From the NCBI GenBank assembly GCA_037444845.1, contig JBBILQ010000001.1:25494-89493 (forward strand): a stretch of DNA of 64,000 bases. Direction: 5' to 3'. The notes under the pieces were generated by a model. That model saw nothing but the letters and a program-made list of their open reading frames with translations, made no database searches and was not told where the DNA came from. The stretch comes from Candidatus Aminicenantes bacterium (GTDB lineage Bacteria > Acidobacteriota > Aminicenantia > Aminicenantales > UBA8522). Made by a program: the position numbers and the translations under genes. Below, piece after piece: positions 4,087 to 43,081 of this stretch; position 1 is the stretch's first letter; each line of letters opens with the position of its first letter.

Positions 4087-4161
4087 TTTCCCCAGAAACG
4101 AGGGGTGGCGCGGGCAAAGTCCGCGCCATATTTTGATTTTTCCCAAATAAATATTTGCTAG

Positions 4162-4315
4162 CCTGATCTATTCACAAAATGATACGATAAAACGCCCCCT
4201 CCCCTGGCGGGAGGGGATAGAGGGGAGGGGGAATCTTTGAATGATCCCCCTCACCCCGACCCTCTCCCACATGGGGAGAGGGGATTTTTTCCTTTCATTT
4301 CGTGAATAGTCCAGG
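4162..4315. mobile_element. 154-bp MITE-like element, copy 1 (imperfect terminal inverted repeats CCTGATCTATTCAC / GTGAATAGTCCAGG; flanked by CTAG direct repeat)
   Basis: 100% identical to 10112..10265; termini are reverse complements (12/14, extending to ~21 nt with ..AAATGA); CTAG at 4158-4161 and 4316-4319; internal GC-rich hairpins followed by T-runs on both strands; intergenic between convergent rho and parB. Confidence 0.65.
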
Positions 4316-4611
4316 CTAGTTTCTCTGCTATATAAGCTTGACATATTTGTAATCTAGGAATAGAAGCATAAACCGATAGAGGGAGCGGAAGGGTATTTTT
4401 GGGTAGATATCTCAAGAAAACGAACAAGAAAGACCAGAAACCGAAGAAAGAAGAGAAAAAGGAAAATAATATTGCGTCGCATAAGGGTTATTATGTCAAC
4501 TTTAATATTTTTTTACAAAAAGGCTACGCTTAATTCAGACAGAAGATACCATTCTTCTCAGGTTCTAGATTAATGACGCGAGATTCGCCCGCCTGCCTTT
4601 TGGGCGCCGCG

Positions 4612-8067: not shown

Positions 8068-9210
8068 ATGAAAGAAACAAAACTCATTTTTATCATCTTT
8101 ATGTTGATTTCGACAGCATTGCGAGGCGAGAAGGTCATCACGATAGGCCAGGCGGGAACCGAAGGAGAGATCGCTTTCCCCAGGCAGGTGGCAGAAGGGC
8201 CTGACGGCAACATCTATGTCTATGACCAGGCGGATGCCTTGATCAAGGTCTATTCTTCGGCGGGCGATTATCTCCGGAAAATCGGCGGAAAAGGCCAGGG
8301 GCCGGGTGAAATTCAGCGGGCTGAGGGAGTTTCTTTCGGCTTCACGGCCGACGGCAGGCTCTTCTTCACCGAATTCTTCGGCGGACATCCCTGGATTACG
8401 GTGGTCAAGCTCGACGGCGAGCTCGATCGAGTGATTAAGCCTCAGGTCAAGGAATTTTTTGGCATATCCAGGGCAGTCGCGCTCCCGGGAGGGAACTTTC
8501 TGATTGAACTTGTCTTCCTCGGCCAGCCGGAAAAAGAAAAGGATTACTTCTACCATCGCTCTCTCCGCGAAATAGCGCTTCTCGATAGTGAAGGCAGGAT
8601 CCTATCCCGCATCAAGCAGACCAACCACATCACTCGGATTTCCTATGTCCATGATGGGGCCGACTCGCCCATCCCCTACACTCCGATGTTCCTCTGGTGT
8701 CCTTATGATGAGAGCTCCGTCCTTTTCTCGGAGGGGCTTGAGACCAACATCCAGGTGATCGACTACTCGGGGAAACTGGTCCGCAAAATCGAGACTTCTC
8801 TGCCAAAGGCGGAAAAGGTGACCAGCAAAGACTTGGATGAATGGAGAAAACGGCGCCGGGAAATGACCCAGAGCCGCGATCCTGACTGGTGGGCCCGCTT
8901 CGGTAAGGTCATTGAAAAATACAAGAAATCTATCTACCCCTATAAGCCTACTATCTGGGAGATCAATCGGACACCCCGGGGCCGTTTCCTGATCGCCTCA
9001 AGGAGAGAAAGTGATGACGCGCGGGCAAGATACTGGCTCATGGATAAGGATGGAAAACAGCTGCTCAAGGTTGACACATCAGTCTGGATCATGGGGATCT
9101 CGCCAAGTTTTATTTTTTTGGGGCAGGTAGACGAAGACGGCATTCCTTCGATCCGGGCTCTCCGGCGCCAGGGGAAGGAAGAAGAGGATCTTCTCAGGCT
9201 CTGTGACTGA
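8068..9210 (+). CDS. Secreted NHL-repeat-like beta-propeller protein (hypothetical)
   Basis: Signal peptide MKETKLIFIIFMLISTAL; repeats resembling NHL units (GNIYVYDQADALIKVYSSAGDYL..G.GPGEIQRAEGVSF); RBS AAGGTGG before ATG 8068. Confidence 0.5.
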   Translation: MKETKLIFIIFMLISTALRGEKVITIGQAGTEGEIAFPRQVAEGPDGNIYVYDQADALIKVYSSAGDYLRKIGGKGQGPGEIQRAEGVSFGFTADGRLFFTEFFGGHPWITVVKLDGELDRVIKPQVKEFFGISRAVALPGGNFLIELVFLGQPEKEKDYFYHRSLREIALLDSEGRILSRIKQTNHITRISYVHDGADSPIPYTPMFLWCPYDESSVLFSEGLETNIQVIDYSGKLVRKIETSLPKAEKVTSKDLDEWRKRRREMTQSRDPDWWARFGKVIEKYKKSIYPYKPTIWEINRTPRGRFLIASRRESDDARARYWLMDKDGKQLLKVDTSVWIMGISPSFIFLGQVDEDGIPSIRALRRQGKEEEDLLRLCD

Positions 9211-10848
9211 TGCACGAGGCGCCCTTCTGCTCCTTCGTTTCAATAAAATCGACCCCTCCCGGCTTAATCTCTTCCAATGCATAATCTCCGCTATCCTTTT
9301 TCACAACTCTCCAGGACTCATTGAGTTTCAAGATCCAGCCGTCCCCTTTGATTTCTTTTCCTTCAATAATCTGTGGTTCGGATACGGTAACCCGCCGCCA
9401 GTTTTTGTCAATCAACAAGCCTTTTTCCACTTCCAGGTTGCCCCATTTATCAATGATGTGCGCTGTCCTGTAAACGCTTCCGTATTCTTCCAGGGGAAAT
9501 ATCTCCTGCGGGTTAAAGCTAATGTTCATCTTGATCAAGTCTATTTTCAAACTGGGCTTGTCAATGAAAATGCTTTTGTACTCTTTGAGGAGCTGGTTTT
9601 GTTTGTCCTGAAATGCCCTTTCGGCTTTTATCAGCTCCTCGCCATCGTATTTATAGTATCTTCTCTCTGCTTCCGTTTTCAAATCGTCCGGCAACTGGAA
9701 AGAAAGGGCTTTTTCCATGATTTCGCCGAATTCGCTCGTGTTGTTTAAGCTACTTCTCCACTCAACCTTTAACTCATCTAAGAGTATCCCGTAGGCCGGC
9801 CCAGTTTGATAGGCAAATGACCAGTTAAAGGATATCTGCGCCTCTGCATTTTTTATTCGCCTTTCCATCTCTATCATCAGAGCCTCTGGCGGATACCCGC
9901 ATAATTTTGCGCCGGTATATTCTGCCAGTCCTTCGTGCATTTCAAATCTGCTCTCGTTCACGCGGGCAGATTGGAAAATTTTGTGTCTGCAATTCCTGAA
10001 AATCAAAGCATCCTCGATCGCTTCCAGCCTGTCGTGGTCGGCGGAAAGCAGAGCCTTTCTTAAGGCGCGCCATTCAAGCTTTAAATAGATTCTCCCGTCC
10101 AACGTATCCAGCCTGATCTATTCACAAAATGATACGATAAAACGCCCCCTCCCCTGGCGGGAGGGGATAGAGGGGAGGGGGAATCTTTGAATGATCCCCC
10201 TCACCCCGACCCTCTCCCACATGGGGAGAGGGGATTTTTTCCTTTCATTTCGTGAATAGTCCAGGTCAGATGGCTGTTGTCCGTATTCACAGGCGGAAAT
10301 CCGATGCCCTTCTGTATCCGGTGCCAGGATTCGTGCGCTAACAGCCAATTCCTGTCCTGTTTATTGTCCCTGGATAAATGATCCCAGATCACCATGGTCC
10401 ATTTTTCTCCATACAGGTCAGCTGCTGTATTGGCAGGATTAATCTCTTTCGCCAATTCCCCGATGAATACATTTCCCCTTTTTTTGAAAGTATTCAGCAT
10501 GTTTTGCTGATTGGCGACGACGGCTCTGGATGCGGGATCGACAAACAGCACTTTGCCGTAAAGGTTGACACGCCACAGCCTGCCATTGTCTTTTTCTGAT
10601 ATTTCTTTTAGTTCCTCGAAATATCGAGAAGCTAAATCAATATCAATGGATGCTTCCTGGCTTGCTCCGGCCTTCCCGGAAGGGAATGATCCGATACACA
10701 CGATCAGCATGATGAAAAAAGCGACTCGTTTCGGCATTGTCACAACTCCAATCATCATTACGGGTCTTCGCATAATAGTACGGATGAAATATCCAAAAGG
10801 TTTTCGAGAGAGAAAAGCGTGGCCTGATACTCCACTGAGCAGCAGCAA
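9194..10848 (-). pseudogene. Secreted HExxH zinc-metallopeptidase gene split by MITE insertion (N-terminal fragment 10848..10267, C-terminal fragment 10111..9194)
   Basis: N-fragment: signal peptide + LLAHESWHRIQ (HExxH); ORF runs 19 codons into the repeat then stops. C-fragment ORF has no ATG for its first 54 codons (track start is TTG). Removing element 10112..10265 plus one CAG repeat joins ...NSHL|DTLDGRIYLKLEW... in the same frame. C-fragment carries EMHEGLAEY, reminiscent of the M1 NEGFAxY third-ligand motif. Confidence 0.55.
10112..10265. mobile_element. 154-bp MITE-like element, copy 2, inserted within metallopeptidase coding sequence (flanked by CAG/CAG within cCAG...tCAG)
   Basis: Identical over all 154 nt to 4162..4315; same orientation; flanking sequence differs outside the element; 3-bp direct repeat CAG at 10109-10111 and 10267-10269. 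Confidence 0.65.
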
Positions 10849-11070
10849 GGCCAGGCCCTGGACTTCTTCTCCCCCGTCTCCCCTCCCCCATCGCTTTGTT
10901 CTGCGTGCAAGGCTGGAAGGCTCGTTACCCGCCTGACCGGCGAGCCTGCCCGTTTCATTGTCCTATTCGTGCTTTCGAGCGTGGCGTAGATACGTCCCCT
11001 TATCTTTTTCGATTTGCTAAGCGGAAAGAGGTGCTTCTGAAAATAACGGAGAGTCGGCATCGACAGCGCT

Positions 11071-12825
11071 TTAGCCTGTAAAATAGAGGTAAGCGGCAAG
11101 GATCAATAGAAGGACAATGGCTGAGGCGATGACGTCGCCGCGGCCCCAGCTGACGCGTGATTTCAACCGGTCTTCGGCAGTCCTGGTGGCATACGTCAGC
11201 CCGCTCATCCTTTCGTAAGAAGGTTCCTTGGTCAGGTAACTGACGACAATCATGACCACGACACAGACGATGAAAATGACCAGGCTGTAGTACTGGAAAA
11301 AGATATTGTTGATGACCCAGAAAAACGAGCCTTCCTGGTAGGAAAAGCCTTTCAATAATTTTACTGGCGTGTCCACCGCCAGGCGGAAAAGGCCAAGGGA
11401 AAAGCCTGTCACCAGAGCAGCCAGACATCCCTTGCTGTTCAACCTTTTCATGAAAACCCCGAAGAAAAAGACGACAAAGATCGGCGGCGCCAGATAAGCC
11501 TGGATTCCCTGGAGATAGTCATACAACCCCTTCCCCCCTCGAATGACCGGGATCCAGAAAAGACCGATGGCTACCATCACTGTCGTGGCCACCCTCCCCA
11601 TCCAGACGAGTTGCTGCTGTGTCGCTTTAGGCCGCATCCGCGAGTAAAAATCCATTGTGAAGAGCGCAGAGGAAGCGTTGAAAACCCCGGCCAAGGAGCT
11701 CATCAGGGCTGCTAAGAGTCCTGCCACCACCATTCCCCGCACACCGATGGGTAGAACATGGGCCACTAGAAGCGGAAAGGCCTTCTGAGCGTTATCCCGG
11801 AGGAGCTCCCCGCTGGGGCCAAAAAATTCCTGTTGGAGGATAGGCACCTGGCCGCTCTTGGCAAGGGCGAACGTAATCATCCCGGGGATGATGAAGATAA
11901 ATACCGGCAAAAGCTTAAAAAAGGACGCTGTGATTGACCCCCGCCTGGCTTCCCGCTCATCCCTGGCTCCTAGAGCTCGCTGGACGATGTACTGGTCGGT
12001 GCACCAGTACCACAAACCGATGATCGGGGCGCAGAAGAGCATCCCCAGCCAGGGATAGTTGTCATTGAAATACCAGGCCATTCGACCCGCTTCCTTGACT
12101 GGTTCCCAAGTTCCTTCTAACCCGGACGGAACCAACGGCTTCCATAGGTTGAACATCTCTGAGCCGGCGATGGAACGCAACGCTTCCCATCCTCCCAGCG
12201 CTTTGAGCCCGAACAGGGTCACGAGGATCGAGCCAAAAACCAGCACGATAGTCTGCATCGCTTCTGTGTAGGCAACGGCCCGTAACCCGCCGAGAATTGT
12301 ATAGACGCCCGTAAAGACAATGACCAGGATGGAGCCAATCCAGAAGCTGTCAAGGCCGAGGAATCGAACTTCCGGCAGCAGCACGCTGAAGACTATCCCG
12401 CCCGCAAAGATGCCGACGGCGATCTTCGTCAGGACGTAGGCGACCAGGGAGATGAGAGAAAGCACGGTCCTTGACGCCGGCGAGAACCGCCGCTCCAGGA
12501 ATTCCGGCATCGTGAAGACCTTCGAGCGCATGTAGAAAGGAACCATGACCCAGGCCAGGACCAGAAGACACCAGGCATGGAGCTCATAGTGCGCCATGGC
12601 CACCCCATCAGTCGCGCCCGAACCCGCCAGGCCGACCAGGTGTTCAGAGCCGATGTTGGAAGAGAAAATGGAAGCCCCGACGATGAACCAGCCCAGGTGG
12701 CGACCGGCCAGAAAATAATCCGTGGAGGTCTTCTGCCCCTGCCGGATGACCCACCAGGATATCCCCAGAATGACCAGGAAATAAAGAGCAATAATCATCC
12801 AGTCAATCGCCTGAAGTCCGCTCAT
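11071..12825 (-). CDS. Sodium:solute symporter family (SSF) transporter
   Basis: 584 aa, ~13-14 TM; N-terminal DYFLAGR motif and GxxxSxN region typical of SSF (SglT/PutP-like) transporters. Confidence 0.85.
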   Translation of the reverse strand: MSGLQAIDWMIIALYFLVILGISWWVIRQGQKTSTDYFLAGRHLGWFIVGASIFSSNIGSEHLVGLAGSGATDGVAMAHYELHAWCLLVLAWVMVPFYMRSKVFTMPEFLERRFSPASRTVLSLISLVAYVLTKIAVGIFAGGIVFSVLLPEVRFLGLDSFWIGSILVIVFTGVYTILGGLRAVAYTEAMQTIVLVFGSILVTLFGLKALGGWEALRSIAGSEMFNLWKPLVPSGLEGTWEPVKEAGRMAWYFNDNYPWLGMLFCAPIIGLWYWCTDQYIVQRALGARDEREARRGSITASFFKLLPVFIFIIPGMITFALAKSGQVPILQQEFFGPSGELLRDNAQKAFPLLVAHVLPIGVRGMVVAGLLAALMSSLAGVFNASSALFTMDFYSRMRPKATQQQLVWMGRVATTVMVAIGLFWIPVIRGGKGLYDYLQGIQAYLAPPIFVVFFFGVFMKRLNSKGCLAALVTGFSLGLFRLAVDTPVKLLKGFSYQEGSFFWVINNIFFQYYSLVIFIVCVVVMIVVSYLTKEPSYERMSGLTYATRTAEDRLKSRVSWGRGDVIASAIVLLLILAAYLYFTG

Positions 12826-42020: not shown

Positions 42021-42055
42021 AGGCATCTAACCTGTCATTTTGCGAATAATCCGGG

Positions 42056-43081
42056 CTAACTTGAGCTTCGCATGAAACCGGCTGCGGTCTCTGGCGGCAC
42101 GGGGTTGATGTAAAAACCCGTTCCCCACTCGAACCCCGCCACCCGTGTAAGAACAGGGATAATCTCGAGGTGCCAGTGGAAGCTCTCTCTCAGGTTGGCC
42201 CAACCTTCGTGAGGCAAATTGGGATTGGGCGCCTGGTGGATGTAAAAATTAAAAGGGGGGTCGGAGAGGATGACCTTGAGTTTCCCCAGGGTCGTCTTTA
42301 TCGTCCTGGCCAGCCAGAGGGATTCGACTTTGGTCAGGCACGTGTACCAGGCGGAGTGCCGCAGCGGATAGATTCGCATTTCAAAGGGGAAGCGTGGGGC
42401 AAAAGGAGCCATGACGCAAAAATGTTCGTTGCGCAGGATGAGCCGCTCGCCCTCGCTCGTCTCATCGCGGATGATACGGCAGATGATGCATTCGCCGTGC
42501 TGCCGATGAAGCCTCTCGCAACCATAAAGCTCCTCGTTGACCTTCTTGGGGATGATGGGAGTGGCCACAATCTGGGAATGCGGATGGCTGAGGGATGCGC
42601 CGGCCTCCCGTCCTTTGTTCTTGAAAACATGGACATACTTGTACTGGAACTCCTTCTCGATACTGAGCACGCGCTTCTTATAGGTCTCCAGCACTTGTTG
42701 GATGTGGTAAAGGGGCAGGTCGGGAAGCTCCCTGTCGTGGTCGGGAGTTTCGATGACGACCTCGTGCACGCCCACGCCGTCCATCCAGCGGAATATCCCG
42801 TCCTCATGCTGGACAGGGGGCATACCCCTTGTCAGAGCCGGGAATTTGTTGGGAACGACCCGAACCAGCCACCCCGGTTTATTAGGCCGCGTTCCGTTTT
42901 TCCGCAGCGCGTAGACCTCGCGGGGGGTTTTGGATTCGTTACCCTCGCAGAAAGGGCAAAAGCCTGCCGGTTCCTTTTTTTTCTCCGTCGGAGCGGGCCT
43001 GAAGTCATCCGGCCTTTTGCCCCTTTCGGCGGCGATGATGACCCAGCGGCCGCTGATGATATCCTTCCGTAACTGGGACAT
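42056..43081 (-). CDS. GalT-like HIT-family hexose-1-phosphate nucleotidyltransferase (galactose-1-P uridylyltransferase or ADP-glucose phosphorylase-type)
   Basis: Zinc-knuckle CPFCEGNE and active-site HPHSQ motif; last gene of the alpha-glucan operon. Confidence 0.8.
   Translation of the reverse strand: MSQLRKDIISGRWVIIAAERGKRPDDFRPAPTEKKKEPAGFCPFCEGNESKTPREVYALRKNGTRPNKPGWLVRVVPNKFPALTRGMPPVQHEDGIFRWMDGVGVHEVVIETPDHDRELPDLPLYHIQQVLETYKKRVLSIEKEFQYKYVHVFKNKGREAGASLSHPHSQIVATPIIPKKVNEELYGCERLHRQHGECIICRIIRDETSEGERLILRNEHFCVMAPFAPRFPFEMRIYPLRHSAWYTCLTKVESLWLARTIKTTLGKLKVILSDPPFNFYIHQAPNPNLPHEGWANLRESFHWHLEIIPVLTRVAGFEWGTGFYINPVPPETAAGFMRSSS

Follow-up and report, generated by a model that had tools for sequence, protein, structure and literature searches.

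A 154-bp miniature inverted-repeat transposable element that very probably splits an exported zinc-peptidase-like gene in Candidatus Aminicenantes

The stretch of DNA analysed here, referred to as the window, comprises 64,000 nucleotides of a Candidatus Aminicenantes bacterium (GenBank assembly GCA_037444845.1, contig JBBILQ010000001.1, positions 25,494 to 89,493 of the forward strand). It very probably holds an accessory gene for an exported, gluzincin-like zinc peptidase of ~440-460 aa, which has been split by a 154-bp non-autonomous MITE (miniature inverted-repeat transposable element). Judged from sequence, the two minus-strand open reading frames (ORFs) at the element are halves of one gene rather than two genes, because removal of 158 nt restores the frame, homologues span the junction, the His-Leu-Asp motif at the break is invariant, and orthologues have the empty site. 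The insertion event itself is ordinary; insertions of MITEs and insertion sequences (IS) into genes are textbook events (PMC10969869). Modest added interest lies in the undescribed peptidase-like family to which the protein belongs and in a BoxC-type core within the element. For annotation, the value of the finding is that two 'hypothetical proteins' of 178 aa and 302 aa, as the halves are called in a public metagenome-assembled genome (MAG), correspond to one disrupted gene. In Aminicenantes, a candidate lineage that has, to our knowledge, no cultured members, the MITE family moreover appears to have been active recently.

One gene in two open reading frames

An initial annotation of the window had described a minus-strand ORF at 10848..10201, carrying LLAHESWHRIQ and leading through ...NSHL into the element, and a second minus-strand ORF at 10102..9194 with a TTG start and no ATG for its first 54 codons. 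It proposed that both derive from one secreted zinc-peptidase-like gene recently inactivated by the element. The two ORFs were confirmed in the sequence, and the proposal is now supported by homologues, reading frame, empty site and identical copies of the element, while several details had to be revised. The HExxH motif of the upstream ORF occupies codons 10335..10321, with the His codons at 10335..10333 and 10323..10321, and NSHL is followed by 21 element-derived codons, rather than the 19 counted initially, and a TGA at 10203..10201. In the downstream ORF the first ATG is codon 55, and EMHEGLAEY is encoded with its Glu codon at 9934..9932. The true start of the gene is the ATG at 10737 (MPKRVAFF...): homologues begin alike (MFKRIAFF, MSKRVAFF), and the gene call of NCBI record GCA_964548295.1 begins there too; the repaired protein has 461 aa from this codon, as opposed to the ~500 aa estimated at first.

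The junction printed in the initial annotation and its claim that excision restores a single frame both stand, but the recipe given for the excision does not. Deletion of 157 nt (10112..10265 plus one CAG copy) leaves one surplus base and the frame stays broken, whereas deletion of 158 nt (10109..10266 or equivalent) yields ...CAT CTG GAT ACG TTG... in one open frame without further stops or frameshifts. Likewise, the target duplication, taken to be 3 bp (CAG), is actually 4 bp and imperfect (CTGA/CTGG). The break falls between Leu157 and Asp158. Upstream of it lie a signal-peptide-like N-terminus (MPKRVAFFIMLIVCIGSFPSGKAGA), a subdomain of beta sheet that includes the invariant NxANTA strand, and the helix bearing HExxH; downstream of it, in the fragment whose database ORF starts at TTG 10102, lie Asp158, a helical subdomain with EMHEGLAEYTG (including Glu216, the Glu codon given above) and a C-terminal beta domain. 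The final ~21 residues of the repaired protein reach beyond the homologues and overlap the convergent neighbour gene.

When the repaired protein was searched against a collection of 5.8 billion proteins, 2109 homologues were recovered at E <= 1e-3, nearly all of them 430-445 aa long, covering 87-95% of the query and spanning the junction; they neither start nor end there, as the initial annotation had expected. The best two share 77% and 76% identity with the query. Across the break, His-Leu|Asp is invariant in an alignment of 12 sequences made for junction and motifs, and in a larger alignment of 49 sequences, from which family invariants were taken, the junction His and Leu are invariant and the Asp is at least 90% conserved. 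The search for an uninterrupted site in relatives was equally successful: the DNA of the three closest orthologues (L003-L005) reads ...AACAGTCATCTGGAT(A/C)AA... through the site, with CATCTGGAT as the empty site, and in BLAST comparison with this DNA the window positions 10267 and 10111 adjoin with a 3-nt overlap (CTG). None of the relatives compared carries the element at this gene site.

The insertion adds 158 nt to the gene (158 mod 3 = 2), which causes a frameshift and a stop 21 codons into the element. The upstream product would consist of 157 residues (signal peptide, beta subdomain, HExxH helix) and a foreign tail of 21 residues, without the HEGLAEY helix (the presumed third zinc ligand) and without the C-terminal domain. 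The downstream ORF, in turn, has neither a signal peptide nor, for 54 codons, an ATG, the ribosome-binding context of its TTG is weak, and a search of 9900..11100 revealed no sigma-70-like promoter. In addition, the element carries a terminator-like hairpin in each orientation (Table 1), and the one on the sense strand is predicted to act as a polar block ahead of the 3' fragment. A null allele is to be expected because the first ORF lacks the presumed third ligand, the second lacks a signal peptide and ATG, and terminator-like hairpins lie between them; most likely, the allele is null with polar loss of the 3' part.

Table 1. Positions of the gene fragments, element copies and element features (window coordinates unless a contig is named)
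Feature	Position	Strand	Basis or remark
5' fragment, codons 1-157	10267..10737	-	frame, alignment, AF2 model
Left target-duplication copy, CTGA	10266..10269	-	one mismatch vs right copy
MITE copy 2, 154 bp	10112..10265	-	repeat comparison, fold
Element-derived tail TWTIHEMKGKNPLSPCGRGSG, 21 codons + TGA	10201..10266	-	translation
Mirror terminator-like hairpin, then GATTTTTTCC	10210..10232	+	predicted
BoxC/PIT/TMECO consensus match	10198..10232	-	exact; same at 4248..4282 (-, copy 1)
Terminator-like hairpin, 9-bp GC-rich stem, -19.3 kcal/mol, then CGTTTTATCG	10145..10167	- (gene sense)	
Right target-duplication copy, CTGG	10108..10111	-	identical to orthologue empty-site sequence
3' fragment, codons 158-461 + stop	9194..10108	-	frame, homologues, AF2 model
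MITE copy 1 (4162..4315), CTAG/CTAG	4158..4319	-	spacer of convergent rho and parB
MITE copy 3, 154 bp, TTAG/TTAG	L023:356-517 (GCA_964548295.1 contig CAZJPZ010000065.1)		intergenic

A mobile element with a BoxC-type core

The element behaves as a bacterial MITE: it is short and non-coding, possesses terminal inverted repeats, is flanked by 4-bp target duplications, occurs in multiple copies and has an empty site. A stretch of 156 nt is 100% identical at 4160-4315 and 10110-10265, where 0 such repeats are expected by chance. The terminal repeats of the copy in the gene, at 10245..10265 and 10112..10132, pair CCTGGACTATTCACGAAATGA with CCTGATCTATTCACAAAATGA at 18 of 21 positions; taken whole, the element forms an imperfect palindrome whose arms of 71 nt are 76% complementary, and it folds up into one hairpin (-99.9 kcal/mol, z = -9.4). 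Its longest open frame is 49-50 codons and it contains no transposase gene. Rfam searches matched no family anywhere in the window.

Two copies reside in the window, and a third, on contig CAZJPZ010000065.1 of GCA_964548295.1, was located through a spurious 83-aa ORF called over it, which was the sole protein-database match of the element. Copy 1 lies directly downstream of rho's own terminator-like hairpin, and copy 3 is ~390 nt upstream of a CarboxypepD_reg/outer-membrane beta-barrel gene. All three share an identical 154-bp body, CCTGG...CAGG (100%), at unrelated sites. The flanks are CTAG/CTAG in copy 1, TTAG/TTAG in copy 3 and CTGA/CTGG in copy 2, and the target duplication is set at 4 bp because of copies 1 and 3; 154 and 4 give the 158 nt by which the gene is lengthened. 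Models with a 3-bp (CTG) or 2-bp (TG/TA) duplication were rejected, as the base after the right end tracks the first base of the left flank when copy 3 is compared with copy 1. The empty site of copy 1 was not recoverable, the rho-parB spacers of the closest relatives being too diverged to align.

Three metagenome contigs of JGI (L009, L013 and L015) carry diverged relatives of the element with 5' flanks CTAG, TTAG and TTAA, and two of these contigs (L009 and L015) break inside the element. CTAG, TTAG and TTAA fit the motif YTAR, which is documented as the target-duplication motif of IS5 (PMC10359306), and 4-bp YTAR targets have also been seen for ISXo1 in Xanthomonas (bioRxiv 10.1101/2023.04.27.538605). 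With the target motif as its sole basis, a tentative assignment to the IS5 family may be made, and the element could instead belong to another family that duplicates 4 bp. The course of events proposed is that the element would have been moved in trans by a DDE transposase of IS5 type that recognises CCTGRWCTATTCAC termini and prefers YTAR targets, and would have entered CTGG, between the codons for Leu157 and Asp158, with duplication of these 4 bp. The frameshift and stop would then leave a truncated product, with the 3' part stranded behind two GC-rich hairpins, one of which bears a sense-strand T-run. A terminal-repeat pattern scan returned no parent IS: matches in genome contigs were due to chance only (within coding sequence in two MAGs of Nitrospiraceae, and on a contig of Bacteroidetes), and those in metagenome contigs were MITE ends or chance.

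Among known systems, IS5-type MITEs resemble the element in its 154 bp, non-coding nature, terminal inverted repeats, 4-bp CTAG or TTAG duplications, identical copies and disruption of a gene, but differ in that no parent IS has been recovered here and that copy 2 occupies the non-YTAR target CTGG with an imperfect duplication. SPRITE, Correia/NEMIS, RUP and BOX elements (PMC10969869) are likewise small and palindromic and form long hairpins with GC-rich stems and T-runs on both strands, and the location of copy 1 between convergent rho and parB, where a bidirectional terminator would fit, adds to the likeness; however, none of them is related to the element in sequence. Rickettsia palindromic elements (RPEs) share with it a size of ~150 bp, a palindromic structure and a position inside a protein-coding gene, but they are in frame and translated with the host protein, whereas the element in this gene brings a frameshift and a stop after 21 codons.

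A short stretch elsewhere in the window recalls the element. On the minus strand at 42027-42059, TTAG-CCCGGATTATTCGCAAAATGACAGG-TTAG contains 25 nt in which a sequence like the left terminus is fused to the last four bases of the element, and the stretch, with its TTAG direct repeat, occupies the space between the stop codons of glgA and a galT-like gene. Either the resemblance is due to chance, or a related element that underwent internal deletion may have left this remnant.

The left arm of the element fits the published intrastrand-triplex consensus of the BoxC/PIT/TMECO motif, CCCTCNCCC-N3-6-GGGNGAGGG-N3-GGGNGAGGG (PMC4666352), exactly, in both copies in the window (Table 1); 0 such matches are expected in shuffles. 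The other arm contains a variant of the motif, C4TC4-N4-G3AG4-N5-G4AG4, at 10145-10181 on the plus strand. A BLAST search of the element against plasmid records, meant to find the parent IS, gave BoxC-like repeats instead: those of E. coli, Klebsiella and Enterobacter are intergenic and ~78% identical over the central 87 nt, and repeats of Azospirillum were matched as well. The enterobacterial matches are paired inverted BoxC repeats, and the core of the element is likewise made of two inverted motifs. The 2015 survey PMC4666352 describes the BoxC motif as widespread and conserved, in E. coli always intergenic and never tied to mobility functions, and leaves open how it spreads. Here, by contrast, the motif is found inside an element whose termini are inverted, whose target is duplicated and whose empty site is documented; one copy of this element is intragenic.

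No paper linking the BoxC motif to MITEs was found in a literature search. The similarity could reflect common descent or convergence of a simple pattern of G/C blocks. That BoxC motifs have been dispersed as cores of IS5-type MITEs, of which this element would be an active example and the enterobacterial paired repeats the immobilised remains, is a doubtful proposition at present; nevertheless, a BoxC-type core in a demonstrably mobile element offers a testable route for movement of the motif.

An undescribed peptidase-like family

A family profile was searched against 1.84 billion cluster representatives (clusters of 50% identity), of which 3128 matched at E <= 1e-3 and 1104 at E <= 1e-30. 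The family consists of exported proteins of ~437 aa with the invariants NxANTA, HExxH, HLD, LEWRAL, EMHEGLAEYTG and SFAYxxGPAYG. Homologues with a name come from MAGs of Acidobacteriota (Blastocatellia, Pyrinomonadaceae) and Zixibacteria, and longer members carry varied fusions (ECF sigma, DUF4440, thioredoxin-like) that are heterogeneous and uninformative. Pfam gave no match at E <= 1 for the query and none at E <= 10 for the 49 aligned members, while searches of NCBIfam and PDB sequences with profiles and lax thresholds were empty or returned chance matches to TPR and designed proteins.

In the AlphaFold2 (AF2) model of the protein (mean predicted local distance difference test score, pLDDT, 90.7; predicted template-modelling score, pTM, 0.84), an N-terminal helix is followed by a six-stranded sheet, the HExxH helix, a helical subdomain and an all-beta domain at 343-437. 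H135-E-S-W-H139 is invariant in the 49 sequences and falls in the predicted helix 126-141; E216 of EMHEGLAEY, also invariant in these, falls in the predicted helix 205-226, and NxANTA precedes HExxH by ~31 residues. The distance of ~76 residues between HExxH and EMHEGLAEY noted in the initial annotation proved accurate, with exactly 76 between the second His and the Glu. From these motifs and the model, the protein is suggested to be a zinc metallopeptidase.

The likeness to M1 and other gluzincin peptidases noted at the outset holds for the motifs but not for membership in M1, a family known for the motif NEGFAxY, the exopeptidase motif GxMEN and the spacing HExxH-x18-E. As in M1 aminopeptidases and LTA4 hydrolase (gluzincins, clan MA(E)), the HExxH helix is preceded by a beta-sheet subdomain and followed by a later helix with xEG(L/F)AxY, here the invariant HEGLAEY. 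However, two extra helices make the spacing HExxH-x76-E rather than x18, and the protein of ~437 aa has a C-terminal beta domain of its own and is without the N-terminal and ERAP1-like C-terminal domains of M1; the model shows only distant similarity to M1 enzymes. Membership in peptidase family M1 was rejected because there is no match to the Pfam profile Peptidase_M1, GxMEN is absent, with NxANTA in its place, and the spacing is x76 instead of x18. The model supports a catalytic domain that is gluzincin-like and not a member of M1, and the proteins may be regarded as a candidate new gluzincin family, with no relative in Pfam, NCBIfam or among solved structures.

The locus, the age of the insertion and other explanations

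Rho of the window has its nearest matches in the collection at 93-98% identity, and the named ones among these belong to Candidatus Aminicenantes (93-95%). In two relatives the rho protein is 97-98% identical to that of the window, and the DNA of the flanking genes agrees at 82-84%. Both keep the order rho-parB-parA-...-380-aa gene-SSF transporter and are without the entire peptidase gene, such that the gap between the 380-aa gene and the transporter gene is ~225 nt in them (L017:17695-17924 and L020:16525-16747) versus 1.87 kb in the window (~9194-11064). The GC content of the peptidase gene is 44-49%, as against 50-59% in its flanks. By these comparisons the gene is accessory, either gained here or lost in both relatives. 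Its loss to the MITE was probably of little cost.

The same split structure is present in the assembly GCA_964548295.1, whose contig CAZJPZ010000001.1 differs from the window by 3 single-nucleotide polymorphisms in 20 kb. Run SRR11582151 yielded a Logan contig whose sequence opens 28 nt into the element and runs through CTGG into the 3' fragment; its start looks like a repeat-induced contig break at the true junction. The insertion appears to be recent, because the copies of the element are identical, the split gene keeps all family-invariant residues and has no other lesion, and its divergence is not in excess: mean identity to eight distant family members is 42.2% for the split gene and 41.2-42.2% for intact relatives. 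As a separate observation, the single-base differences between the window and the contig of GCA_964548295.1 are located at 10754, 16310 and 18395, and the two assemblies, whose public contigs measure 137,748 and 132,317 nt, represent slightly different consensus sequences of one population.

Among other explanations, the one that survives best, though improbable, is a reversible switch or mixed population, in which precise excision via the short duplication would produce ON and OFF cells and the MAG would represent the majority allele. Precise excision with phenotypic reversion has been described in Xanthomonas for an IS with 4-bp YTAR targets (bioRxiv 10.1101/2023.04.27.538605), and the absence of secondary damage in the gene would suit such a state. 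However, none of the databases searched yielded an intact allele, the duplication is imperfect, and the lack of decay equally fits a recent insertion. Even less probable is an old pseudogene, already decaying when the MITE struck what would have been neutral DNA. The gene is accessory, and its absence from the syntenic loci of related Aminicenantes (those with rho at 97-98%) makes it dispensable, but the 461 codons contain no other stops or frameshifts, all invariant residues are retained, and there is no excess divergence from intact relatives.

Still harder to credit is an assembly artefact in which a short repeat was threaded wrongly into a gene that is really intact. At 154 bp the element is about as long as one short read, and contigs L002, L009 and L015 end inside it. 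A misjoin, however, would neither duplicate exactly the 4 bp that form the target in orthologues nor keep the two halves in perfect register; moreover, two MAG assemblies share the structure, the border of element and 3' fragment is also crossed by the independent Logan contig, and there is no intact allele of >77% identity among the 5.8 billion proteins. A tolerated insertion is equally implausible, whether as an in-frame extra peptide like those of the RPEs, which are documented intragenic MITEs (PMC10969869), or as two ORFs encoding subunits that reassemble: one frame is open throughout the element but differs from that of the gene, which shifts by two and runs into the TGA, the second ORF with no signal peptide, early ATG or promoter-like site could not follow the first out of the cell, and the break is inside an invariant motif directly after the catalytic helix.

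Several points nevertheless weigh against the split of a peptidase gene by the MITE as set out here. The duplication around copy 2 agrees at 3 of 4 bases, with A instead of G at 10266, and its target CTGG is not a YTAR site; these flanks require either a G-to-A change at 10266 after insertion or an imprecise event. Neither the window nor the scanned collections contained a parent IS or transposase gene with CCTGGACTATTCAC termini. The split allele is documented at the level of assembled contigs, and its loss of function is read from the sequence. Termination within the element is uncertain because E. coli PIT/BoxC motifs gave no terminator activity in earlier work cited in PMC4666352. Finally, a Foldseek search against PDB found nothing significant, and the enzymatic function is argued from two motifs and a weak fold match.

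A further observation was made in the rho-parB spacer. Downstream of parB, a block of 27 nt (GCGTCGCATAAGGATTATTATGTCAAC, ~4470-4500), which has no Rfam match, is nearly perfectly conserved in four genomes (the window, L017, L019 and L020) within a spacer that is otherwise unalignable.

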